Positions 1 to 49,401 are shown, counted from the first letter of the stretch. The stretch: 64,000 nucleotides of DNA from Lingula anatina (GCA_051362555.1 CM120643.1:5332001-5396000), one strand, 5' to 3'. Notes: generated by a model from the sequence alone, not told the origin. A program made the numbers and translations.

Positions 1-1704
1 TTGCTTATTCTAAGAACAATATGTCAATAAAAAAAACATTTACCATTTGCAAACTTGGTCATCCTATCATTTATGTGTTATCTTCTTCGCTTTCATAGTA
101 TCTAGCCCAAGCAACTGTTACAGTTCCTCATATAAATTAACTCACTGAGTGATAGCCAATAAATATTTTGTTAGTTCTTCCTATCAATAATCTATAGCAA
201 AACTTATTAAATGATATGCTTAATTTAATGCTGTGAAATAGTTTGTCATGTTTTGTATATTGTAGTGTATAACCAATGCTGTACAACATTATAAATCAGA
301 TCCAACATGTATGTTGTGTTCTTGTTTATTTATAACCTTTTGATTTTGCATTCGGCAACTTTTGTGATAAAGATTTTAAGGTTAGCATAAATAATAATAA
401 TGATATAATTACAGCAACATCTGAGTACCATTACATAAAGTATTTGTACTTTATTTAATTTTTTCCTTTGCCCTTTCCTGGTCAGAATACCCAAAAGGCC
501 TCCCTGTAAACTGAGTAAATTTTAAATAGTTCTATTTTCAATTATTTTTAACCAATCATCTCAAAATTTGACAATTTAATGCAGGGCAGTCATAGCAGAC
601 AGCCTGAAATTCAATACTCTTCATTCAATGCTACCGGTAACTGTTTTTAAAAAGTGAAGATGACTTTCATGACAGAAATTTGGATGAAACTTTGCACCAA
701 AAATGATATTTGTATTATTATTATTATTTTTTTTTTTTTTTTTTTTTTGTTAGATTGATTTTTTAATTGAAAAACCATTATTCCTTCTAAATTTTTTTGC
801 ATTATGTCTTCAGTGAATACCAATGGGACTCCATGAAAATTTACGTCAAAGGTAATAATTTAGAAAAAGAAAAATTAGGCAAAATTGAGAAATACAGTAG
901 TGGTATTACAACTAATTGTAACAGTGAAAATTTCAAGCCATATCAATGAAAAATATAGATATTACCATTCTATTGCAGAATGGCAATTTTGCAGATTGGC
1001 AATATAATGGTAATATAGATATTACCATTATATTGCCATTCTGCAAAATTAATTATTCATCAATTAATTAATGGATCATGAACGGAATTGGTGGTCGTAT
1101 CGGGGTATCAGTACAACAATAAAAAAATTTTAAAAAAGGAAAAAATCATCACCAAAAAAAAAAAAAAAAAAAATCAAACAATTTCTTCCTTTGTTCATTT
1201 CTGACCTATCCTGAAAATTGCATGAAATTGGCCATTTGTGAGGACTGAGATATCCTAAACATTTAACTATAAATTAATGGAATATCGCCAAAACCTAATC
1301 ACTTCTTTCTTAGCTCATTTGTGACCTATCCAGTGAATTTCATCAAAATCTATACATAATTGATTATTCAATTAACTAATTTAAAATTAATTAATCAATA
1401 TCACCAAAATTTGTTCGTCAGGTGCAGGCACCCCGTACAATGATTCACAAAAAATTGGAACTATGATTTCTGTGTTCTGCGCCAGAAAGAGTACATAAAC
1501 ATACAAAACAAGCAAACAAACCAACCAACCAACACACTTTTATATCCCCCCAAGGGATTTTGCAATAACAAACATACAAATGGTTACAAGGACTAAACCT
1601 TTCTTGGAGTAAATTAAAAACTGGTGGTGATAAGATACAATAAGATGCTGATGATGAGCTTGAGGGAATTAAATCAATTGGTTGACAATGTCACCATACC
1701 TTAC

Positions 1705-2007
1705 CTGAAATGTTCATCCAGGAACAAAGTGGCTGCATGGTAAACCCTGGGACAGGAGAACCTCTCTGCAAACTCCTGAACCCCCAGAACATTCTGGACA
1801 GAGATACACTGTTCCAAGTAGTCACAGCACAAATCCTTCAGGTCAGCCATCAGCAAAATATCTGCTGCCTGTAAGATATCCTGGATGTTCTCTTCATCCA
1901 TCATGATGACAGAGGTGTAGATGTAGTCCAGTATCTGTTCAAATATTTCTGGATCCATTTCATTGATGTCCACTGCTGTCCCCAACTGCTGGTAGCTGTA
2001 GACAGCC
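1705..2007 (-). CDS. GAN: Gigaxonin-like BTB-Kelch protein, coding exon 2 (BTB C-half/BACK start); gene continues left of window
   Basis: Acceptor ttctctcctag at 2008, donor gtaagg at 1704; peptide IQDILQAADILLMADLKDLCCDYLEQCI...ATLFLDEHFR resembles gigaxonin as I recall it; phase 2 matches exon 1. Confidence 0.85.
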
Positions 2008-2457
2008 CTAGGAGAGAACACACACAAGTATTCTGGGTTAGCAGTAGGATCTGAGCTCAACTTGTATTTATTAAAACTGGCTAATAATGTATTAAGTATT
2101 TAATTTCATAACAGGAAAACTGTCCTCAATGAAATGATTGAAAGATAAATATTTTCAGATTGCCAGGTAGTTTGCAATATCATAAAAAAACACATTTATT
2201 ATCCACTAAACCCTGCAATGGCAGACCCAGGATATCAAGAGAAAGTGGGAGTGCAATTTCTTAGGAAATATGATACAAATTGGGATCTTTTACAAGATTC
2301 CTAATCACTATTTCTCAGTAATGGAGATTTCTTCTCTTTCCTTTACAACTTGAGTTTACTACACATACAGACAAGCAAGACTATGACGAAGTCTGCTATA
2401 TATGTATGCCAAGGGTTCACTATGCTGAAGGTTCCCTATGATGAAGGTTTGCTATTT

Positions 2458-26109: not shown

Positions 26110-28859
26110 TCAGACTCTTGTAATTTCTCCATTCTGTTGCTGCTGCAAGGCCTTACAGTAATACTTCTTGTGAGCAATAAATGTGGCTAAATACAAAAAG
26201 GTAATGTCACACTGCTTGCAATACTTTGGACTATTTTTATCATTCTTCAATGCTACCAAGTCCATCAAAGCCTCTGTGGATTTGTGGTTTTGATTTGTAT
26301 CATTTAGTTGACAAAGTAGAGAATCCTTTTTTCCTTTCTCCTTCTCCAAAATCTCAGTATTATTACCTTTAAAAATGGAAGAACTGTTTGAAACATTTTT
26401 ACTTTCAAACGTTTCAGCATTGTCTCCTTCCTCATCTAATGTCTCCATTTTTATATTTTCAGCTGAATCTTTGGCAATACTGAGTGAATCATGGTTATTT
26501 TCAGTTGGAGAACCTGAAGATTCTGCTACTTCATCTTCTTCCATGGTTGGCGCTCTCTCCTGACTTTGTAAATCTTCACCCATGTTCATGCCATTGTGTA
26601 GACTACTACCATCTTGAGAGTCAGTCAGACAGCCACTCAATTCTGGTTCTATCTTTATAACTAACTGCTCAGCATCATGATTACCTTTGTCATTCAATTG
26701 GCCATTTTCAAAAGAATTCTCATCTTTTTGACCTTCATGTGTGATTTTGACATGGTGCACAAGGTCACACTTGGCATTAGTCTTGAAATCACATGATTTG
26801 CAAGTGTATGTTGAAACTTCATGACTCCTAACGTGTTGGCGAAGTTTGCTGGTATCAGGAAAAACTTCCCCACATATTCCACACTCATGTGGAGGTTGCT
26901 TCCTCATTGGCTGTGGGAAAACATTCTGCTGTGCAACAATGTCATCAACCTTCTCATAGGCCTTCCTGGACTTTCTCCTTTTATATGGCTCATTTTTCAA
27001 TCGTAAGAGTTCTTCTTCTGAAATATCAGCTCTATGAATTGGACCCTGTGCGGCATGATGGAGTTGCTTTGGAATTTGGGGTGGTTCTTCAAATTCAGCC
27101 ATATTTTCATCTGTAAACTCTTCACCATTTTCAATATGCATTCTCCCATGCATACGCATGCCTCGCACAGTATTGCCACGATAACCACACAGTGTGCACT
27201 TAAATACTTTTGACGGTTCATGTGCTTTCATGTGTTCAATCAAACGATTGTCAGAAGGTCCAATGTAATCACAATACGGACACTGAAGGATTACAAGTGT
27301 TGAGGGATCAGATAAACAGGCATGCACAGTAAGCTGACGCTTTGAAGCAAAAACCTTGCCACAGATTCGACAGAATACTGGGTTATCATTGGTCTCACTT
27401 TGTGCACTCTTTGGACTGGTTTGCTCTTCTGGGTCTGGGGTGGTTGCTTCCTGGTTGACCTGAGTCTCACGGTATGGGCAGTAGAACTGCTTATGTGCAT
27501 CCAGCGTATCCATGCTGCTGAACCTGATCTTGCAGGGCTCACACAGATATTGTAACAGTCTTGCTGAGGTTCTGGGTGAAGTGTGATTTCTGATGGACTG
27601 AACTGACTGAACACTTTTGCCACCTTCCTGGTCTTCAGATTTAGATGCTGAACTTGGCTGGATGATCCTTTTTTTATTTGGTGATTTTGCAGGGATAGCT
27701 GGCATTACGATTTGGCCTATGGGCACTCTGGCATGGCGTTCTGAACAATAAAATTGCTTATGGGCAACATAATTCTCAAATTTATAAAAAACGATGTTAC
27801 AGTCCACACATTTGCACATGCCTGCCTTAAGCTGTATGGGTGAGGGGATTCCTGTGGGTGATCCAGGATGCCCACTTGTTGTTGCCAGTGAAGTATGCTG
27901 TTTGTTTCCCTCACTTAAAGACTCTGAAGATTTTTTAAGGCTCAAATCTTGTGGCTGGTCATCAGCTGTAGATAAACCTGATAAATTTCTGCTGCTAGAT
28001 TGCCTGCTCAAATTGAGGACATCAACATTTTCCACAGCACCAGGGCTTTCACCTGCTTTTTTTATGCTCAAATCTAATGGCTGTTCATCCCCCGACCCAT
28101 CTTCAGCTTTCTTGAGAGCCACCTGATTCTGGTGAGCTTGGACAGTGTTCTGCATGGCAGGCAAGCTGGGTACAAACACAGGCTGCATAATGACTGTAGC
28201 ACCAGACCCAGGCACCAATGGTGCTGTAAGCACCACTGTGTGAGGAGACATTCCAGTTGATGTGGGTGTTGCTATGGTGATGGTTGTCCCAGGTGACAGA
28301 AGAGGGTGACCTGGTATTAGATTGGATATATCTAATGTCGGGGGTGCAGGTGAAGCACCAGTGGGAGATGGCTGACTTCCTTGTTTCATGCGTCTTAAAC
28401 CACAGTAATACATCTTGTGTGCTTGGAATGTATCATACGATGTGAACTGGATATTGCACTCTTTGCAAAAACTGTTATCTTTTGGGGATGCTTTACCATC
28501 ACTGTCACTGCTACCACTGGTGCTGCCATCTTGCGCTGGCGACCCGTGTAACACCATATGGCGTTGTATTGCACTCTCAGTGTCTGCCTTAAAGGTGCAT
28601 TTCCCACACTCATACATCTTTGCACTGGGCGACCTTGATGCTGGTGACCTTGACCCTGAACTGCCACGACTGGACAACCTTGGTGATAAATTGCTGATGG
28701 GTGGCTGGCTGGGTATAATAATCATAGGGGGTGTGGGTGTTGTTGGTGCTGACATAAGAGGTGATGAAACTTCTCTCTTGATAATTTTTGTACTGGGTTC
28801 AAGGAGATCTTGAGAGGTTGCCATTCTCTTGTTTGGATTATTTGGCAGTGTTGACACAT
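26110..28859 (-). CDS. ZFPM: Friend-of-GATA/U-shaped (ZFPM1/2-like) zinc-finger protein, large terminal exon
   Basis: Four FOG-type CCHC fingers (CxxCxIxF...AHKxxYC), several C2H2 fingers incl. CGYRGNTVRGMRMH, CtBP-binding PLDLS and PQDLS, basic KRRKSRKAYE; acceptor ttcttccag at 28860. Confidence 0.93.
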
Positions 28860-29523
28860 CTGGAAGAATAAATAATTAACACTTAGAGTAAGTTAGAAAA
28901 ATACACTTTAAAAACCTGCCAACAGTAAAACATGCCCTTTAGTGAATTGTTCTGATTTATTTTTCTCAAATAATTTACCACCAATAAACTTGACAGACCT
29001 GAAATAAGAATAAAATCAGCCTTTTTTAAATATTCTATCTACAGGGTTTTAGCTAGCTGTTGTTTATATCCAGCAAAGCATGATTTTTATACCAATTCCA
29101 ACTATTACTAAAAACTATCTGAATTAAGCTCTGCAATTCCAGTCTTAAAAACCATGGTGCATTTGACACTGTGTTAAGTGCACAAAAATATAGCCAAAGA
29201 AAAATGAAAGTTAATTTGTTTACAGCAATTGAGTTGTTCAAAGAGAATCCCCTTACAATATAGTTAATATAAATGTCATTTTTACAATGTCCAACGGATT
29301 TATACTTTTAATACAACATTTAGCAAAACATTTCCAATATACTTTTTTACAGACACCAGGGAGCAAATTAAATCAAAAAAACTAGATGGCAAACACCAAC
29401 AGGCCTTGTCCTTTTCACCTCTTTGTTTATTTTCTAAAGTGCTCATTCCACACATCGTGACAAACATTTGATTCCTGTGCTTTACTATGGGGCAAAGGTA
29501 GTCTACATTCAACTCCTCCCTAC

Positions 29524-30797: not shown

Positions 30798-32811
30798 TGC
30801 AATGTGCCTAGGTTCAACATACTAGTAATGTGTCACAGGAAGTTAGTATTGAAATTCAGGCATTTTTTAAAACTTATATTTAAATGCGGTAAAAATATGT
30901 GAAGCATTAATGATCAGTTACAGCAAAATCACAAACAAACAAACACTTAATTTAAAGAATAGAGAACAAATCCGGAAAAAATCACCCTTAAAGACCAATT
31001 TACTTGACCTGCATCATTTTGGTCTAGATTTAACTCATAATATATGGCAACAATTTTCTGAGTGCAAAAATATATTATAGATATATAGATACACTGTATC
31101 TAGATAGACAAACACATTTATCTCTAAACACATAAAAGAACCTATTTCTCTACTATTTAGTAAATATTATATACAAATCTAGCATAAAACATTTTTTTCC
31201 TTGTTATACACTTTAAGTGTTCAATTTCTACAGTTCATTGAGCTGTACCTAACAAAGTTTTTGATCACAACTGGATGTCACTCTGAAACTGAGCACATAA
31301 GCAAAGACGACTACACACTGTCAGATGAATTTTCATTAAAATTTTTTTTCTTTTCAATTTCTTATTAATTCCAGTTACCTTTTTATCCAAGGCCTGATAT
31401 ATGTCATCTTCCCACTTCAGTGACAGGCTGCAGGATGATATTTACTACATAAAACATGCATATAACTGGATGTCTGCATCCCTATCTTTATTTCAACCAT
31501 GTCTCTAATTACAGCATCTATCTATTTCCTGCTTGGATTTATCATATTTTCCAGTTCTCTGTAAATTGTGTACCCTGGGCTGCCACACAAGGGCCTATCA
31601 CAGCAATAATATTAATGTGTATTGGAAAGGGTGATAGATTGAAAGTTATCTGTATAGGCGGCTGTCTGCCACAGCTTCTAACACAATCAAGACAGAATTA
31701 AGTTTCATGCATCTCTGACGTGCAACAGATAGCACCAGGCGAATATGTCATTATCCAATATTTTTATCAAAGGAGTGCAGTGCTGGCCTCCCAGCCCTAT
31801 TGATCTCCGTCTCTAATACTTATTATAGCATCAGGTGGTTTATTTCAAATCCTGAATAATTTGTTTTTAGTTCAATTATCTCTCAATGTGATTACAATTT
31901 TGCGTATCAAAATTCACAGACTTCTGCTGAAGGATTTTCAACCAGCAAATGAGTAGAATAGTTTTTCTCCTAATCAGAATACTTGAAATTAAGCCATAAT
32001 AGCGCCAAATGCCATATACATAAATTCTTGTACTGAAGATAAATCTCATTAACAGAAGGTATCTGTATCAAAACAGAAGAATAACTCAACACAGAACTCA
32101 AATGAAAAATAATAATAATTCACTTTTCAGTCTGTCTCATCTAACACATTCCTACTAGTATGCTTTCCACAAAAGCAACACATATGATACCATTACTTCA
32201 GCAACTGAAAGAATCAATAAACTTTGCAGCAAGATTGTTTTAGCAAAAAATTGAAATCTAGCCTCTCCCCAATTATAAAGTACACAATTTCTAGCAAGAC
32301 AGCCATAAAAAATGGAGTGGTCCGGTAATTAGGTGCTGATCAAAAATGGCCATCCTATTCTATCTGATATCAGCCTGTCAATATTTGTGCAACTAAGACA
32401 AATTATCTTTTCTCTCTCTAGCAGAATTTCCAGGAATGAAAGAAATTGATTATGTCTAAAGCCTAACCTTTGGGGCATATTGACATATGTCACTGATGAC
32501 AAATGCCCTATCCTGAACTTAGATTAAAAGTTTTTCATACTAGTAATCTTTCATGCTTAAAATTTACATAGTTCTTACTATACCCCTTTACATTCTCACA
32601 TATATATAAACATACCAGTATTGCTGAACTATGTTAAGTGGATTTCTTAACAAGGCACTTATTTCACCTAAAGCCCAGGGTCTATTGTCATGTTTTGTGA
32701 TTACAAAATCATGAGCAGTTTCTGACATGTTGTACTAATATAAAAATTAAAATCTACCTAGGAATACTAATATCATCTTATGTGTGCTGTCCTAGACTTT
32801 TACAAAGCAAC

Positions 32812-32830
32812 TCCCTCTCTCTCTCTCTTT

Positions 32831-32866
<36 letters not shown>

Positions 32867-33307
32867 CCAAGACCTTCTCTCTCTCTTTCTCTCTCCTTAG
32901 ACTCCCTCCCTCCCTCTCTCTCTCTCTCCTCAGACTCTCCCCCCTCTCCCCTCAGACTCTCCCCCCCCTCTCCCCTCAGACTCTCCCCCCTCTCCCCTCA
33001 GACTCTCCCTCCCCCTCTCCCCTCAGACTCTCCCCCCCCTCTCTCCCCTCAGACTCTCCCCCCCTCAGACTCTCCCCCCCCCTCTCTCCCCTCAGACTCT
33101 CCCCCCCTCTCCCCTCAGACTCTCCCTCCCACTCTCCCCTCAGACTCTCCCCCCTCTCTCCCCTCAGACTCTCCCCCCAGACTCTCCCCCCCTCTCTCCC
33201 CTCAGACTCTCCCCCCTCTCCCCTCAGACTCTCCCCCCCTCTCTCCCCTCAGACTCTCCCTCCCCCTCTCCCCTCAGACTCTCCCCCCCCCCCTCTCTCC
33301 CCTCAGA
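32812..33307. repeat. (CT)n grading into a C-rich ~20-23-bp minisatellite (ccctcagactctccccccctct)
   Basis: Direct reading. Confidence 0.95.
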
Positions 33308-34009
33308 CAGAGACCTACACAGACATATGGCAGCATAATTATAATGCTCTTTCTTCAGAATTCAATAACTGGTTTAGTTCCTCAAAACTTAAAATGTTTG
33401 AGGCAAATGGCAATATAAAACATACATGTCAGACCTGTTCCAGTTGATAAGACATGTTACTTTGTTCTGACCCGTTGGCAACATTACCTAACACTGATGG
33501 ATGTGACACCGTGTTTCATTCAGTCTTGGATTACACCTCACTGTGATCATGAAAAACAAATGTCACTGATGAACCTTACCTTTTTTTTAAATTTTATGTT
33601 TGCCTCACCTTTTGTTGTGAAACCCTTCTAATGACCCTAACAATCTTAAACGATTACAAACATTCACACCATATTTTTCCCACCTGGTAAATTTCTGGCT
33701 ATTGTAATGTCTCCCTTGTTCCTCTTCTTCAGTGGACTAAGATCTTTTAACACTGACAGAAAAAAAGCATCAGTTCATTCATGCACTAGAATGTTTCTTC
33801 ACCAAAAAGGAAACAGGAACTGTCATTGGCACTCCTTCAGCCTCTGAGTACATATACATGCACATAAGGCTTTGTCAGTTTACAAGTATACCACAGAATC
33901 ACTGATTCACATCTGCTCTCTGAATCTGTTATCTATCACCACCCTCCAGTTCTACAACACATGATCATTGGTCCCAAATTTCTTGATATCCTAGTTACTT
34001 CTCATGTTT

Positions 34010-42206: not shown

Positions 42207-42387
42207 TTAAAACCAGAACCACTATCGGGCTTAAAAGTTTATTAAACTACATAAAAGTTTACATAAAATTACATAACTACAGTAAACGTTAACTACTTCA
42301 ACACAGTACATCAACCCGTATGTTAATGAGTTGCAACCCTTAGATACAGGTAGCAATATTACTAATTGCAGCTGTTCAAAATTCCCA
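42207..42387 (-). repeat. Ngaro split direct repeat B2 (181 bp; copy B1 at 42706-42886), carries minus-strand AATAAA about 30 nt from the end
   Basis: Direct sequence match by eye; tttatt at 42238-42243. Confidence 0.95.
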
Positions 42388-43044
42388 TTTACTAAGCGCA
42401 AATGTTTAAAAATTAAATGAAGATCATGTACGCAAAATGTGTACAATGCAAATGTAAGATGCGCCTTCCGCCCATATGAGGGACGGGAGGGTGGGAAAAT
42501 CTTCTACGCTTATGCTTAAGCCGCTTTTAATTGAAGCAAAATGGGCTCGAGCGCCCTTACACGCTGTCCAGCTTTAACGGCTGCCAGGCTCTAACTGCCA
42601 ATTATTTTGAATGCGCCACGTGAGCTGGCTGACCAATCCCGAGCCCGCAGCCTAGGCGTCCCTCTAGTGGTGGTTTTAAATACCATTCCCAAAGGGAAAG
42701 GGTACTTAAAACCAGAACCACTATCGGGCTTAAAAGTTTATTAAACTACATAAAAGTTTACATAAAATTACATAACTACAGTAAACGTTAACTACTTCAA
42801 CACAGTACATCAACCCGTATGTTAATGAGTTGCAACCCTTAGATACAGGTAGCAATATTACTAATTGCAGCTGTTCAAAATTCCCAACCCAGAGTATGAG
42901 TAGGTGAGTGAAAATGAAAATAGACGTAATTGCACTTAAAAACTGCCATCTAGACATATAACAGTGGACCTCGTCTTTGGGGGCAGTCACAAGTTGTTAA
43001 TTTCCAGTCCACTACTTTAAGTTTTTCATAATTTAACTATAAGT

Positions 43045-44007
43045 TCAAACTTTCTTCAGCGCTCCCACCATTACATCGTATTTCATATCCGCCGAGGGTT
43101 TGATGTATTGGAATACCGCGTCACTAGACCAGTCTCCCATGGCCTTCACCATCGCTAAAGGAGTACCGATAGAAAGAAGCCACGTAGCTCCTCCCCTGCG
43201 GAGACTGTGAGTATTGTACGTCGCGGTGGAAAGTCCGATCCCTCGAAGTGACCGTGCAAGTTTTTGACGAAAGCCTGCCGATGTGAGGAGAGTGGTCTCT
43301 CCGTTGTAAGAAGTGGCAAGGAGCGGCGCAGATTCCGGGACGTCCATGGACATCTTCAGAAAATTTGTCAGCGCTGTTGTGGGGCATAAAGGGCTGCCGT
43401 GACGAAAGGGGAGTGTAACGATATGGGTTCTCTGGCCGTACTGATTGTTTTTCGATTTGGTTACTCTTAGGGTGCAAAATTGTAAATGTCAAGTCGCGGC
43501 GACATATAGATAGGCCGCTATCTGTCTGAGACCGGGCCGTAATATTGCTAACTCTGAGCATTCCAAAGAAAGCGATCAGACAAGCTGCCCACGTCTGTGC
43601 TTGTTCTAAATCGTTCAGGTTGAGGAATGATCGTAGGTTTAAAAGCTGTGGTGGTAGGATGGGTGCTTTCTGAGAGCCCGGATCTCCTTTGTGTCTCTTT
43701 ATACCACCTAGAGTCGTCTTCAGCTCCCACGAACACAGAGGGTTAGGAAGTCCGAAATCCGTGTGGATGATCCGGACGATATTTAGGTACTGCCGAAGAG
43801 ATGAGAAAGCGCACGATCGTGCCCGGTAAGCGGCGTATCTGCAGATGTTGGTGGGGGATATAGGAATCGGTTTACAGTTAATTTCCTCACAGAACTTGAT
43901 ATAAGCTCTTAGATGTGATCTATAAGTTGATTTAGTAGAGGGCGAGAAAAGTTGAGCTCTCCAGAAGTTCACTTCATTATCTAGTTGTTGTCTCAGTCTA
44001 TCGGAGC
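43045..44007 (-). pseudogene. Ngaro tyrosine recombinase, one frameshift near 43480
   Basis: Frame 1 has GMLRVSN; frame 2 has KSKNNQYG..LCP..HSLRRGGA..MGDWSSDAVFQY, so the R-K-H-R-W-Y catalytic set is present but split. Confidence 0.9.
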
Positions 44008-45629
44008 CTGGGATAAAGAAAAGAAAAAGAGGAATTAGTCATATGGTCTTGCAGAAAATACACTGGCGGCTGTCTGTGTAAGCTTAAATACCAGTGATGG
44101 ACTAATTCGAGGAAAAGAGAGCAATGTTCTGGCTCATGCATTCGTGACACGGAATCGGCCATTTTATTTTCTTCCCCGGCGATATGGATCGCATAAATTG
44201 AAAAGTCATATTTCAGCGCTAGGAGAGATAATTCCTTAAGAAGGTTGTTGCAGGCGGTGTTTGGCGAAGCCCCTTTGTTTAAAATGTTCATTGCCACTTC
44301 ACTATCAGTGTAAACAATGACGCGTTGTGCCTTCCACAGCGGGGACCACCTGTACGCAGCCAGGACGATGGATGCTAATTCCTTGACATTAATGTGTTCA
44401 CCCCCTAACTGGTGAGGAGCGTCCTGTATCCAGTTAGTGTAAAACCAATCTCCGCAGTAGAACGCTCCACCTGCTGTGATGCTGGAGTCGGTATACACCT
44501 GTTGAATCGGTCGCGCGTCCCATATGAGTTTTGTATTGTTTCCCGTGATGAGCCACTTGCTCCACCAAAGGAGGTCTTTACGTAATGGGTTTAGCTTGCA
44601 CTTATGACTGGCTCTTTTCAGTGAAGCTATGGAGTTAAATATATTTCGCACGTGTGTTCTACCCCATGGGATGACGTTCGATGCCCAGACTAACTTCCCG
44701 GCCAGGGATTCAAGCTGACGTCTGCTGGCGCGCACGCGGCTTTGAAATGTTTGGATCAAGCGGAGTAAGTCGCGAACTTTTTGTTCCTCTAAAGAGAGTA
44801 CGCCTTCAACAGTATCTATGACGATGCCTAGAAACGTTAGGCGAGTCGTTGGGTCACAGACTTTTTTCCAGTTGATGCCAAAACCCAGGAGTCTTAAAAG
44901 ATTGATTAATGTGCTATAAGCCTGCTTGCATCGTTCAAATGTCTCTCCTATAACCAAAAAGTCATCTAAATAAACTACGACGTGGAAGCCTCGTTTCTCC
45001 ATCATCCGCTTTACCGCTTGTGTTAACCGGTGAAAAATTTCGGGGCTTTTGCGGGCCCCGAATGGGAGTCTCGTGTCCACTAAAGTCCTTGGCTCAGTTG
45101 AACCAGCAAAGTTCCATTTAAGCCCAGTAAGGGTTAACTGGGAAGGGTGTAACGCGACAGTTCTATATGCTGAGTGGAGGTCAACTTTGCTGAGAAAATA
45201 TCCTGGTTTAATCTTATCCAGTGCCGACCGTATAGTCTCGTATCGAAATGTTTGTTTTGTTGCGTAATCGTTTACTGCTGCCCCTTCAGGTCTGCTGTAA
45301 TCATGAATAAGACGGATGCCGCCGTCAGGTTTTGGCACTGCGGAAATTGCACTAATTATCGTAGGCTGGAGTTCTGGTTCAATATAGTGACCCTCCTCTA
45401 TTTCTGTTTTTATTTGAGTCTCAACTTTATGCTTGAAAGCTTCGCAAGTGGCGGATCTACTGTTTTCTACTTCAGTTCTCGTGATGCGATCCAGATCTAA
45501 ATCGTCGACTATTCGGAAGCCCTCCCGAATACCATTAATTATAAAATCATAGTCTGTATCTCCTTGTAGTTCCTTTTCCCATTTTTCAATGTTTTTGTGC
45601 AGCGGAGATTCTTTTGCGGCGTGCGTTTG
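43998..45629 (-). CDS. Ngaro Pol (reverse transcriptase + RNase H), open from the gag stop onward in the same frame
   Basis: PKPDGGIRLIHD, KVDLHSAYR, LPFG, YLDD; RNase H YTDSS..HINVKEL..YTDS..NKMADSVSR; I translated the frame open for 97 codons upstream of the listed GTG. Confidence 0.92.
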   Translation of the reverse strand, partial: QTHAAKESPLHKNIEKWEKELQGDTDYDFIINGIREGFRIVDDLDLDRITRTEVENSRSATCEAFKHKVETQIKTEIEEGHYIEPELQPTIISAISAVPKPDGGIRLIHDYSRPEGAAVNDYATKQTFRYETIRSALDKIKPGYFLSKVDLHSAYRTVALHPSQLTLTGLKWNFAGSTEPRTLVDTRLPFGARKSPEIFHRLTQAVKRMMEKRGFHVVVYLDDFLVIGETFERCKQAYSTLINLLRLLGFGINWKKVCDPTTRLTFLGIVIDTVEGVLSLEEQKVRDLLRLIQTFQSRVRASRRQLESLAGKLVWASNVIPWGRTHVRNIFNSIASLKRASHKCKLNPLRKDLLWWSKWLITGNNTKLIWDARPIQQVYTDSSITAGGAFYCGDWFYTNWIQDAPHQLGGEHINVKELASIVLAAYRWSPLWKAQRVIVYTDSEVAMNILNKGASPNTACNNLLKELSLLALKYDFSIYAIHIAGEENKMADSVSRMHEPEHCSLFLELVHHWYLSLHRQPPVYFLQDHMTNSSFSFLYPRLR

Positions 45630-46739
45630 TCAATGCGAAGGATTTCTTGCTGTGGGACTGGTCCCTTGCTGCTTGTGCGTGTATTCCCCATGAGTAGTAC
45701 TGGAACAGGCTACACACGCGTGAGCATAACGGCAGTTCGGGAAAGAGCAGCCCTGGCGACCGTTAAATTTCATACAAATGGGTCGACCCGTCGCTGTGTC
45801 CAATTTTGTTTGTTTCCCTCTGGTTGTTGGTTGGGTTGAATTCGGTTTTAACAACACCTGCATGAGAAAGGGGCTGTCGGTTCCCCATGGAAATCCCATC
45901 TCGCTCTGAGATTTCCTATACTCTGCGTCGAAGCGTAAGACTGATTGCCAATTAAAAGATTGACCCATGCATGCCACCTTTGTCACGTAGCTGGTGTAGT
46001 CCATGACTGTTTGAATGTCCGCGCCGTCGTCGGCCACCATTTCCCTTAATATTTTCATCGACGCTTCTGTGTATTGCAGTGGGGAAATGCGCTCCAGGGG
46101 AAGTTTTCTGTCGGAGAGGGAAAGTTGTAAATCGCCAATACGGACTGGTGTGTCACTTTTCGCTTCAAATTTGTCTGCAAACATTACATAGCTACGTATG
46201 TCGCGATGCTTGTTAAGTTTTCTTTGTCTATCAGGAGTTGAAAAAGGATCAAAAATCCCCTTACCGTCGTGCTCTCTCTGATGAACTCTGTTTGGTTGAT
46301 TCCCATTCCCGTTCCCAATGTCTAGTAGTTGGCATAACCTGGTGTAATCGAGGTCCCCGGTGTTTCCTGTTTCAGTTTGCGCGCTGGGGGCCGCCATATT
46401 AGGGGTCCCGGATGTCCCTGGCAAGATGGCTGGGGCCTCGTCTTGGGTTTTCTTGTCTCCAGTTTCGGGAGTAGAGGTTGCAGCAGACACACTGTTAGAC
46501 GTAGCTGGACTCTGGTTGTTCTGTGGCTGAGCACTATGTTTTTGTTGTAGGGTAAGCACCGCATCTTGGAGAAGGAGGATCTGAGCCAGCGGTAGAGATT
46601 TACTGAAATGTCTTTGAATGAGTGGCTCTGTGAGTTTCTTGCAACTCCTGAGTGAGAAGAATCCTGCATCCTTTAAGATTTCTACCGTGTCTTCCGAGAG
46701 CTCGTTAGCCTCCACCCAAGACTGGAATTCTTCAGCCAT
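45630..46739 (-). CDS. Ngaro Gag-like ORF1
   Basis: 369 aa; C-terminal Cys/His knuckle CMKFNGRQGCSFPNCRYAHACVACSSTTH; WQSVLRFDAEYRK...W motif. Confidence 0.88.
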   Translation of the reverse strand: MAEEFQSWVEANELSEDTVEILKDAGFFSLRSCKKLTEPLIQRHFSKSLPLAQILLLQDAVLTLQQKHSAQPQNNQSPATSNSVSAATSTPETGDKKTQDEAPAILPGTSGTPNMAAPSAQTETGNTGDLDYTRLCQLLDIGNGNGNQPNRVHQREHDGKGIFDPFSTPDRQRKLNKHRDIRSYVMFADKFEAKSDTPVRIGDLQLSLSDRKLPLERISPLQYTEASMKILREMVADDGADIQTVMDYTSYVTKVACMGQSFNWQSVLRFDAEYRKSQSEMGFPWGTDSPFLMQVLLKPNSTQPTTRGKQTKLDTATGRPICMKFNGRQGCSFPNCRYAHACVACSSTTHGEYTHKQQGTSPTARNPSH

Positions 46740-46759
46740 TGTCAGGGAGAAAAGAACAA

Positions 46760-46969
46760 AAAATCTTCTACGCTTATGCTTAAGCCGCTTTTAATTGAAG
46801 CAAAATGGGCTCGAGCGCCCTTACACGCTGTCCAGCTTTAACGGCTGCCAGGCTCTAACTGCCAATTATTTTGAATGCGCCACGTGAGCTGGCTGACCAA
46901 TCCCGAGCCCGCAGCCTAGGCGTCCCTCTAGTGGTGGTTTTAAATACCATTCCCAAAGGGAAAGGGTAC
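46760..46969 (-). repeat. Ngaro split direct repeat A1 (210 bp; copy A2 at 42496-42705)
   Basis: Direct sequence match by eye. Confidence 0.95.
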
Positions 46970-47578
46970 ATAACACTGCCATTATCCTACATAAGTAAAC
47001 TATGTGCTAGCTCACAGTTTATATAACACTGGTATTATCCTACATAAGTAAACTTTGTGCAAACTAACAACAGAAATTGAATGTGAAAAAAACATCGTCC
47101 TTCATTTTATGACATAACACTTATTACTAACTAAATTAATCATCGAAAACTGGCCTGGTGAGAAGGAATGCATATTGCTTGTAAGTGACACAAATATTCA
47201 AGTCAGTCACCAAATTGGAAAAAGAAAGTTCAAGTAACCCTTAATAAAATCAAACATCATCCTGGTACAAATTTAACATTATGAAAAAAACATTTTGGAT
47301 TAGATGGATAAGATTACAAATAGCCGTAAAATGTTCACCATGCCTTTATTTGCACTCAACCCATCTTTTTATCAATGTAGCTTCCTAATAACTTTAAGTA
47401 AATAAAATGTTTTGGTACTTACAGGGCAAAAGTAACTTCCATAAAAATGGTTTTCAAACTAAGTCTGCGATTTTACCAAATGAAACTTCACATACCAGTG
47501 AATTAAAAGTAAAATATAAAATTTGGCAGTGGAGTTAAGAATTGTGTCAGATGACTATGGCAGCAGCAACAAACACAA

Positions 47579-48296
47579 TAGGTAATGTGAACATATACAG
47601 ACACACTAGAGCTCCGTTCACATGACAAGTCTATTTTCTAAAAATCTATTTTCTATTCGCGGTATCTTGTGATCACGTTCTGTGCACTGAATACCCCGTG
47701 GCGTAATTACTGGCAGCATGAGCCGGTTACTTCCAAAGCTGTAATTAATTCTCAGCTGCGCTCGGAGTGATCACAAGATACCACGAATAGAAAATAGATT
47801 TTTAGAAAATAGATTTTTCATGTGAATGGAGTCTAGGTATTGTGGACATATACAGACACACTAGGTAATGTGGACATATACAGACACACTAGGCGATGTG
47901 GACATATACAGACACACTAGGTTATGTGGTCATATACAGACACACTAGGTAATGTGGACATATACAGACACAGTAGGTTATGTGCACATATACAGACACA
48001 CTAGGTAATGTGGACATATACAGACACACTAGGTAATGTGGACATGTACAGACACACTAGGTAATGTGGACATATACAGACACACTAGGCGATGTGGACA
48101 TGTACAGACACACTAGGTAATGTGGACATATACAGACACAGTAGGTAATGTGGACATATACAGACACAGTAGGTAATGTGGACATATACAGACACACTAG
48201 GTATTGTGGACATATACAGACACACTAGGTCTGTGGACATATAAGGACACACTTGATGTAGACATATACAGACGCACTAGGTCATGTACAGACACA
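47579..48296. repeat. 28-bp minisatellite (gtaatgtggacatatacagacacactag), roughly 17 units
   Basis: Direct reading; no unique spacers. Confidence 0.93.
47610..47833. mobile_element. Harbinger-like MITE with ~65-bp TIRs inserted in a minisatellite
   Basis: TIR ctccgttcacatga...gtgatcac; tag on both sides; truncated relative at ~19057-19240. Confidence 0.78.
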
Positions 48297-49401
48297 TCGA
48301 ACATCTGTAGATAACTAGACATCCAAGATATCACATCAATAAATGAACACTAGTACCAAACAAATGTAGCTCAGTCTACAGTCTATAACAAAGAATAAAG
48401 GCCAAAGTGAGAGAAAAGAAAGCATTAAGTTCTAATAAAATGCAATATTTAATGATTAAGCCATGAGCAAGCTTACAACAAAAATTTCACAAGAGAGTGA
48501 GACATACACCAAACCAACACTAACTTCTAGACAACAAATATAACAACTAAATTATAAAGCTAAAATGGCCTTGTTCAGGAAGAATACACATTGTTCATCA
48601 GAAACAAATTTTTCAAGAAGTCAGGTAACTAGAAATGGTTACTCCCAGTACCCTGAAGCAAAATAAGTTTATCTTTTGATAAAATTAATAAGTCACAGCA
48701 CTGCAAGATATATAAGGGCAAAATGCATGAAGACATTTTTAGTAACTAATAAAACTTTTGTCTTTTTAAACTTGGTTGAAATCAGTGGTTCTATTTTCTC
48801 TGTCAATCAGGAATGAACATGTGGTAGGGAGAGTAGTAGAAAACCTTAACATACACGGTGGCCTTCCACTCTTAGTACAGTGTTTTGTGTAAAAAGCTGT
48901 AATTCATTGCTTTTTTTACTTGAGAAAAGGCATGAAGACAACAAAAATATGTTAAATTTGAATGAAAGTGTGATATAATATGTGTGAATATATGTGTGAT
49001 ATATGCTGAATGCAATATTGCACCCTTCCCCAAACACAACGTTAAAAAATTTTGATTCTGTATTGGATAAAGTGACTATATGTAGCCTAGGACAGATGCA
49101 GGTGTTGGCTAAATGTACAGACACAATCTGTATGGATATAAAAAAAGCTGGCAAATATACAGACACTAATACAGAGAATAATATCGTTACCATGCACTAC
49201 TTAGCACTGCTAATGTTAACAGGCATATAACAGCAAACAGTAATTTTTGTAAAAACATGGCAATATCATGCTGATTTTCAAAAGGATCTCTACCAAACAA
49301 AGTCACTTAGCAAGTTTGCAGTAAAAAACAAAAATATAGTAATGTAACTTTGGATTGGAAGTTGTCAAACTTGTTACTCAATATTATGACTGAATTCTCA
49401 C

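Follow-up and report, generated by a model that had tools for sequence, protein, structure and literature searches.

How does a retrotransposon make an integration enzyme whose reading frame has no start codon of its own? The question is raised by a complete Ngaro-type retrotransposon at positions 42209-46971, on the minus strand, of a 64,000-nucleotide (nt) stretch of Lingula anatina DNA (GCA_051362555.1 CM120643.1:5332001-5396000), the whole of which is called the window here. The element has the order A1, gag, pol, tyrosine recombinase (YR), B1-A2-B2. A TGA at 44041-44039 shuts off its YR frame on the upstream side, and no Met occurs in frame before residue 159, which already belongs to the catalytic part, bearing out an original prediction from this DNA that the frame has no ATG ahead of its catalytic core and is closed at about 44040. 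We consider it likely, with a probability of roughly 0.8 judged from the sequence and its conservation, that an element with such conserved, phase-matched splice sites makes YR from an RNA joining gag codons 1-158 to the ATG-less YR exon. Splicing itself, and the pairing of these two sites, are strongly inferred, being predicted and not observed. The proposal involves the following features.

45630..46739, minus strand: gag open reading frame (ORF), 369 amino acids (aa), ATG 46739 to TGA 45630, with a SAM-like N-terminus, a linker, a conserved core and a Cys/His-rich end
46265..46739, minus strand: predicted coding exon 1, 158 codons plus 1 nt, read from the donor and the gag frame
46259..46267, minus strand: predicted splice donor ACG/GTAAGG, phase 1, based on sequence and conservation
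44008..46264, minus strand: predicted alternative intron, 2257 nt, containing the Gag core and almost the whole of pol
43998..45629, minus strand: pol ORF, reverse transcriptase (RT) plus RNase H, 543 aa, first Met far into RT
44008..44041, minus strand: branch-like CTAAT, pyrimidine tract and predicted CAG acceptor, phase 1
43045..44007, minus strand: YR exon, frameshifted in this copy near 43476-43490

Predicted splice sites in the window copy

The donor (ACG/GTAAGG, the slash marking the exon boundary) ends the exon at 46265 and opens the intron at 46264; counted from ATG 46739, exon 1 measures 475 nt and ends in phase 1, in agreement with the original prediction. It is the sole NNN-GT-R-AG match within gag, and a weaker donor-like CGT/GTAAGG is present in the A repeat. 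The acceptor, ...CTAATTCCTCTTTTTCTTTTCTTTATCCCAG/G (CCCAG/G), was likewise placed correctly, with the intron ending at 44008 and the YR exon starting at 44007 with a phase-1 entry. Its tract holds 18 pyrimidines in 19 positions, the highest value among the five acceptor-like sites in the element. The first ATG downstream of the acceptor is out of frame in the window copy.

The spliced RNA would skip pol and the Gag core, fusing the N-terminal part of Gag to YR, and the unspliced RNA would act as the genome and as the mRNA for Gag and, via likely readthrough, Gag-Pol. An in-frame fusion of about 158 Gag residues to YR had been predicted for this very copy. The phases of the two sites do match, but the prediction overlooked that the window YR is frameshifted near 43480, and a fusion made from this copy would be missing the catalytic C-terminal half of YR. 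The domain matches, PF13495 (Phage_int_SAM_4) and PF00589 (Phage_integrase), both below curated cut-offs with E values of about 5e-5 to 7e-5, fall in two different frames of the window copy, and the motifs HSLRRGG and W-x-S...Y align with 15 relatives, indicating a tyrosine recombinase and not a DDE integrase. Since its YR is frameshifted, the window copy would depend on other copies. These differ at the frameshift site, as 3-4 of 7 RNA reads of run X1 carry extra letters at 43476-43479.

Conservation of the acceptor

The relatives are the best 80 of at least 367 confirmed metagenome loci, retrieved with a YR alignment. One locus without the YR N-terminus (L022) was dropped and 7 near-copies were collapsed, giving 73 distinct elements including the window. 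Donor, acceptor and phase, whose comparison across related elements bears directly on the original prediction, are conserved in distant relatives, the median pairwise Pol identity among the 36 elements with gag being 42%, with more than 70% in 12 of 630 pairs.

Within a search zone of 75 nt upstream of YR helix 1, the best acceptor is in phase 1 in 71 of the 73 elements and scores at least 5 in 49. Eight shifted control windows reach this score in 0/60, 1/61, 2/64, 2/69, 3/73, 1/73, 17/71 and 2/70 elements, and their phase-1 counts do not exceed 38/73, none being fixed at phase 1. Counted without any scoring model, a phase-1 YAG is present in 72/73 elements. AG is absent from the 19 nt upstream of the acceptor in 65/73 elements, compared with 27/71 controls. 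The pyrimidine peak and this AG exclusion are not explained by coding bias. The pol stop precedes the acceptor in 12/63 elements, and the pyrimidine tract is therefore not a by-product of pol codons.

Further loci (L081-L088 and others) were retrieved later and scored under the same rules. Among the pol-bearing ones, 7 of 8 have their acceptor in phase 1, or 6 of 7 if only independent loci are counted, L082 being a near-copy of L012 at the acceptor. The single miss, L081, has a phase-1 acceptor-like site, read by eye, 92 nt upstream and outside the rule. Four held-out YR loci without pol have no acceptor, with scores below 0. L081-L088 are Ngaro elements of the animal type and carry splice signals, yet their contigs are assigned to bacterial metagenome-assembled genomes, most likely through host contamination. 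Scans of viral contigs returned nothing with one query and two YR loci without pol with a later one.

The reading frames around the acceptor differ among relatives. The YR frame of L027, L060, L068 and L078 follows the pol stop in frame, directly or nearly directly, with the phase-1 acceptor still in place, and L041 has pol and YR in a single open frame, its acceptor nonetheless being kept.

Conservation of the donor and the joined frame

Enough upstream DNA for a donor search was present at 43 loci, which gave 36 usable gag ORFs; at the other 7, excluded here, gag was missing or broken. Phase 1 holds for the best gag donor in 33/36, whereas synonymous-codon shuffles give 22.3±3.0 with a maximum of 30/36 (200 shuffles), and the pol control gives 14/36. 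In a refined zone, 90-180 aa before a conserved Trp, which 32 elements reach (4 being too short), the donor is in phase 1 in 32/32 and strong in 27/32, compared with 7.4±2.3 and a maximum of 15 in 500 shuffles. The same test applied to other stretches of gag yields 1/32, 5/32 and 2/22. At this site the encoded residues differ between elements (G or S followed by K/E/R/T/N) and the GT is constant. The site mostly lies between the variable, often SAM-like N-terminal part and the conserved Gag core. The predicted intron would measure 2173-2467 nt across the 32 elements, and past the junction the joined frame stays open for 320-344 codons in 26/32 and to the contig end in 3.

Could such signals arise by chance, or as by-products of protein-coding sequence? 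Coding frames do favour phase-1 YAG and GGT-AAG, but the observed donor counts lie above every synonymous shuffle, and the pyrimidine tract is still there where pol does not reach, and whichever frame pol is in. By these comparisons, the conservation of donor and acceptor is in excess of chance, and an origin as chance or coding by-products is hardly credible.

A pol-less relative

The locus L075 (1-2803) has the architecture predicted if selection acted on the spliced product alone. Its SAM-like Gag N-terminal part is open for 134 codons up to CAG/GTGAGC, a phase-1 site and the best donor upstream of its acceptor. The Gag core and RT are deleted, starting within about 30 nt past the donor, and a gap of 634 nt, in which pol remnants are broken across frames with 6-16 stops per frame, is followed by a phase-1 acceptor and an intact YR, which is 61% identical to that of the full-length element L042. 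When joined, the two parts encode 465 aa. We regard L075 as a candidate for a semi-autonomous class. Its ends are identical over 119 nt, which may be an A repeat or an assembly overlap. A processed, intron-less copy with the precise junction was not found in the first 80 loci.

Evidence weighing against the spliced product

Several results count against a spliced Gag-YR product and are brought together here. The splice scores use textbook frequencies, the acceptor score being a generic model not trained on these elements, and the branch motif is weakly enriched (43/73, compared with 28/70). One control within the YR coding frame has a phase-1 YAG in 44/73 elements, so the acceptor phase alone is partly coding bias. 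The refined donor zone was picked after the result for the 36 gags had been seen, and just two held-out donors test it, the 2/2 scorable ones being in phase 1 with scores of 8.8 and 7.3 and two further gags being unscorable. The joined frame is broken in 3/32 elements (L031, L068 and the window). L075 is a single contig and has an in-frame ATG 20 codons ahead of helix 1.

Such an ATG upstream of helix 1 is found in 22/73 elements, L075 included, and some YR gene calls start with a Met just ahead of helix 1. This would fit a YR translated alone, from an internal promoter or by internal initiation at an ATG or some other codon close by, with the splice-like sites being incidental. Against it, 51/73 elements have no upstream in-frame ATG, 39 still lack one when the first 20 codons of the protein are counted in, and the positions in the rest are scattered. 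Separate translation also gives no reason for the CAG, the pyrimidine tract, the AG exclusion or the phase match, and we judge it very improbable.

RNA was drawn from 7 of 9 same-species runs, with 6-30% of each read, and junctions were reported from a threshold of 3 reads from 2 starts. A likeness of 90% gave 122 placements and one of 80% gave 102 (224 in total, run X7 being placed at both levels), many of the reads coming from diverged copies. No junction reads were listed in the 7 runs, at a depth of about 1 or less at the donor, too low to weigh either way on the splice. The intron side of the acceptor is covered by 3 reads in X7 and 4 in X9, from diverged copies, as unspliced RNA would produce. 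Fused Gag-N/YR proteins were absent among 15 YR matches, 17 Gag-N matches and the best 150 of 1383 Gag-N matches; those proteins with a listed source were mostly metagenome gene calls. In the public cnidarian gene model P0058, a SAM-like Gag N-terminal part breaks off at the donor residue and continues where RNase H begins, and not in YR, which may reflect a second acceptor, a deletion or an artefact of gene finding.

With no junction listed at this low depth, P0058 and the weaker site in the A repeat could be taken to mean that the acceptor is real and served by another donor, in the 5' leader, in pol, in a host exon or on a trans-spliced leader. A non-coding leader, however, would not fix the phase of the acceptor, and it would leave YR without an ATG. 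The matching phase of the gag donor throughout the 32 elements and the retention of only Gag-N and YR in L075 also speak for the gag donor. We therefore see another donor as improbable, a little less so than a separately translated YR, and keep the joining of gag codons to the YR exon as the preferred explanation.

Recoding at the gag-pol and pol-YR junctions

In the window, pol has no early ATG and continues in frame from the gag TGA.

45627..45632, minus strand: gag stop TGA followed by pol in frame (TGA CAA), likely readthrough site

Contexts such as UGA-C and UAG-G favour readthrough. Gag-Pol of the window element is likely made by readthrough of its UGA-C stop, as far as this context can tell, and a stable RNA structure within 100 nt after the stop is unsupported (z -0.26). 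Across the 36 elements, the gag-pol junction is an in-frame stop in 17 (TGA-C in 9, TAG-G in 6, TGA-A in 2), a -1 overlap in 17 and a +1 overlap in 2. A strict slippery heptamer is present in 13 of the 17 -1 overlaps, and GGAAAAC in 3 more, with motifs including A AAA AAC and G GAA AAC. On a quick tree of the retrieved relatives only, the mode switches at least 5 times on well-supported branches, the splice signals being unchanged. In the sister elements L042 and L076, to which L075 is most closely related, pol is +1 to gag and there is no obvious recoding signal.

Recoding is also the printed proposal for YR itself: PMC13003380, quoting Poulter and Butler 2015, describes a Ngaro YR that overlaps with pol in the -1 frame, with programmed frameshifting as its probable means of expression, which would give a Gag-Pol-YR protein. 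YR is indeed in the -1 frame to pol in 33/63 elements, usually overlapping it. It is in the +1 frame in 24/63, the window included, and in frame in 6/63, and 3 more have no overlap. A strict slippery heptamer is found at 2 of 33 pol-YR junctions, compared with 13 of 17 (16 with GGAAAAC) at the -1 gag-pol junctions. Frameshifting would also leave the fixed-phase acceptor, the donor and the pol-less L075 unexplained, and we give it as little credence as a separately translated YR. Neither a start codon of its own nor a frameshift signal thus leads into YR in most of these relatives, either of which would have told against the original prediction.

The Gag N-terminus

A protein made from the spliced RNA would carry about 100-300 aa of Gag, because the donor lies deep inside gag. 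In the window element this part begins with a compact domain.

46530..46739, minus strand: SAM-like five-helix domain at the Gag N-terminus, from AlphaFold and Foldseek

AlphaFold predicts five helices for Gag residues 1-70 (pLDDT 93.5), and the top 10 Foldseek matches in the PDB for the Gag N-terminus are all SAM domains (TM 0.63-0.72), although with E values above 0.1. The Pfam SAM family matches 5 of 14 homologous N-termini, weakly and below the curated cut-off, and gives no match for the window's own. The gag product as a whole has no Pfam match at E<=0.01, and its assignment as Gag comes from its position and the conservation of its homologues. We infer that the SAM-like N-terminus could act as a tag carrying YR into the Gag particle with the complementary DNA (cDNA). 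This packaging role stays conjectural because several relatives carry other Gag N-termini.

Relation to known systems

Retroviral env and foamy-virus pol are expressed from spliced RNA that skips internal genes to reach a 3' gene, with unspliced genomic RNA alongside, and retroviruses recode gag-pol by readthrough or -1 frameshift. The Ngaro arrangement would differ from env and foamy-virus pol in that the donor lies deep in gag and the gene reached at the 3' side encodes the integration enzyme. In Copia, too, alternative splicing of the genomic RNA sets the protein output, there producing Gag with no Pol; the Ngaro splice would instead give a Gag-N/recombinase fusion without the Gag core. A spliced gag RNA of Ty1/Copia elements is the subject of PMC5580714.

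The element shares the A1-[gag, RT/RNase H, YR]-B1A2B2 plan, without methyltransferase, of the Ngaro-like elements in the order DIRS, according to PMC8547959, PMC3266345 and PMC3783388. The DIRS-like (DIRS1) superfamily, marked by inverted terminal repeats together with an internal complementary region, was rejected as an assignment, the element not being bounded by an inverted repeat. No Pfam methyltransferase domain scored at E<=0.01 after RNase H, past which pol continues for about 45 aa. The Xenopus Ngaro has an SGNH hydrolase ORF (PMC9210276), whereas the window element has none. The printed Ngaro model, in PMC13003380, is frameshifting for YR, and the window element points to a spliced Gag-N/YR instead. 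The literature searched yielded nothing that describes a spliced Gag-YR for Ngaro elements; Goodwin and Poulter 2004, Poulter and Butler 2015 and Repbase lay outside that search, and an earlier mention is possible.

The route of Ngaro YR expression has so far only been guessed, as a frameshift, and the conserved splice sites predict a precise, testable junction. If the splice is used, the real recombinase bears 100-300 extra Gag residues, and annotation, biochemistry and engineering that ignore them start from the wrong N-terminus. A way for an integrase outside Pol to get into the particle is suggested as well, and the element would join, as an independent case, the retroelements that balance spliced against unspliced RNA. 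More tentatively, and at somewhat less than even odds, we can envisage a retrovirus-like programme of animal Ngaro elements comprising Gag, a Gag-Pol made by readthrough or -1 frameshift with repeated switches between the two in evolution, a fixed spliced Gag-N/YR with a SAM or coiled-coil packaging tag, and a pol-less class of the L075 type with its own integrase that borrows capsid and RT.

Other features of the element and the window

The terminal parts of the element are split direct repeats, as found by repeat comparison.

46760..46971, minus strand: split direct repeat A1, element 5' end, 212 nt, 1 mismatch to A2
42708..42886, minus strand: split direct repeat B1, 179 nt, identical to B2, with AATAAA at 42742
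42496..42707, minus strand: split direct repeat A2
42209..42387, minus strand: split direct repeat B2, element 3' end

The A pair differs at 1/212 nt and the B pair at 0/179 (identity 99.5-100%), suggesting that the insertion is young since both pairs are nearly identical.

Just upstream of the retrotransposon, a 220-nt element resembling a miniature inverted-repeat transposable element, with 65-nt inverted arms, lies at 47612-47831 inside a 28-bp tandem array (47569-48308). Downstream, on the same strand, the region 26110-28875 (minus strand) holds an exon of 921 aa, bearing CCHC/C2H2 zinc fingers as well as PLDLS motifs, which we take to resemble Friend-of-GATA/U-shaped. The retrotransposon may sit in or before this zinc-finger gene. 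An exon at 1701-2099 (minus strand) presumably belongs with BTB/BACK kelch-family proteins, which it resembles. A long C/T-rich simple repeat with strong GC skew extends over 32700-33450.

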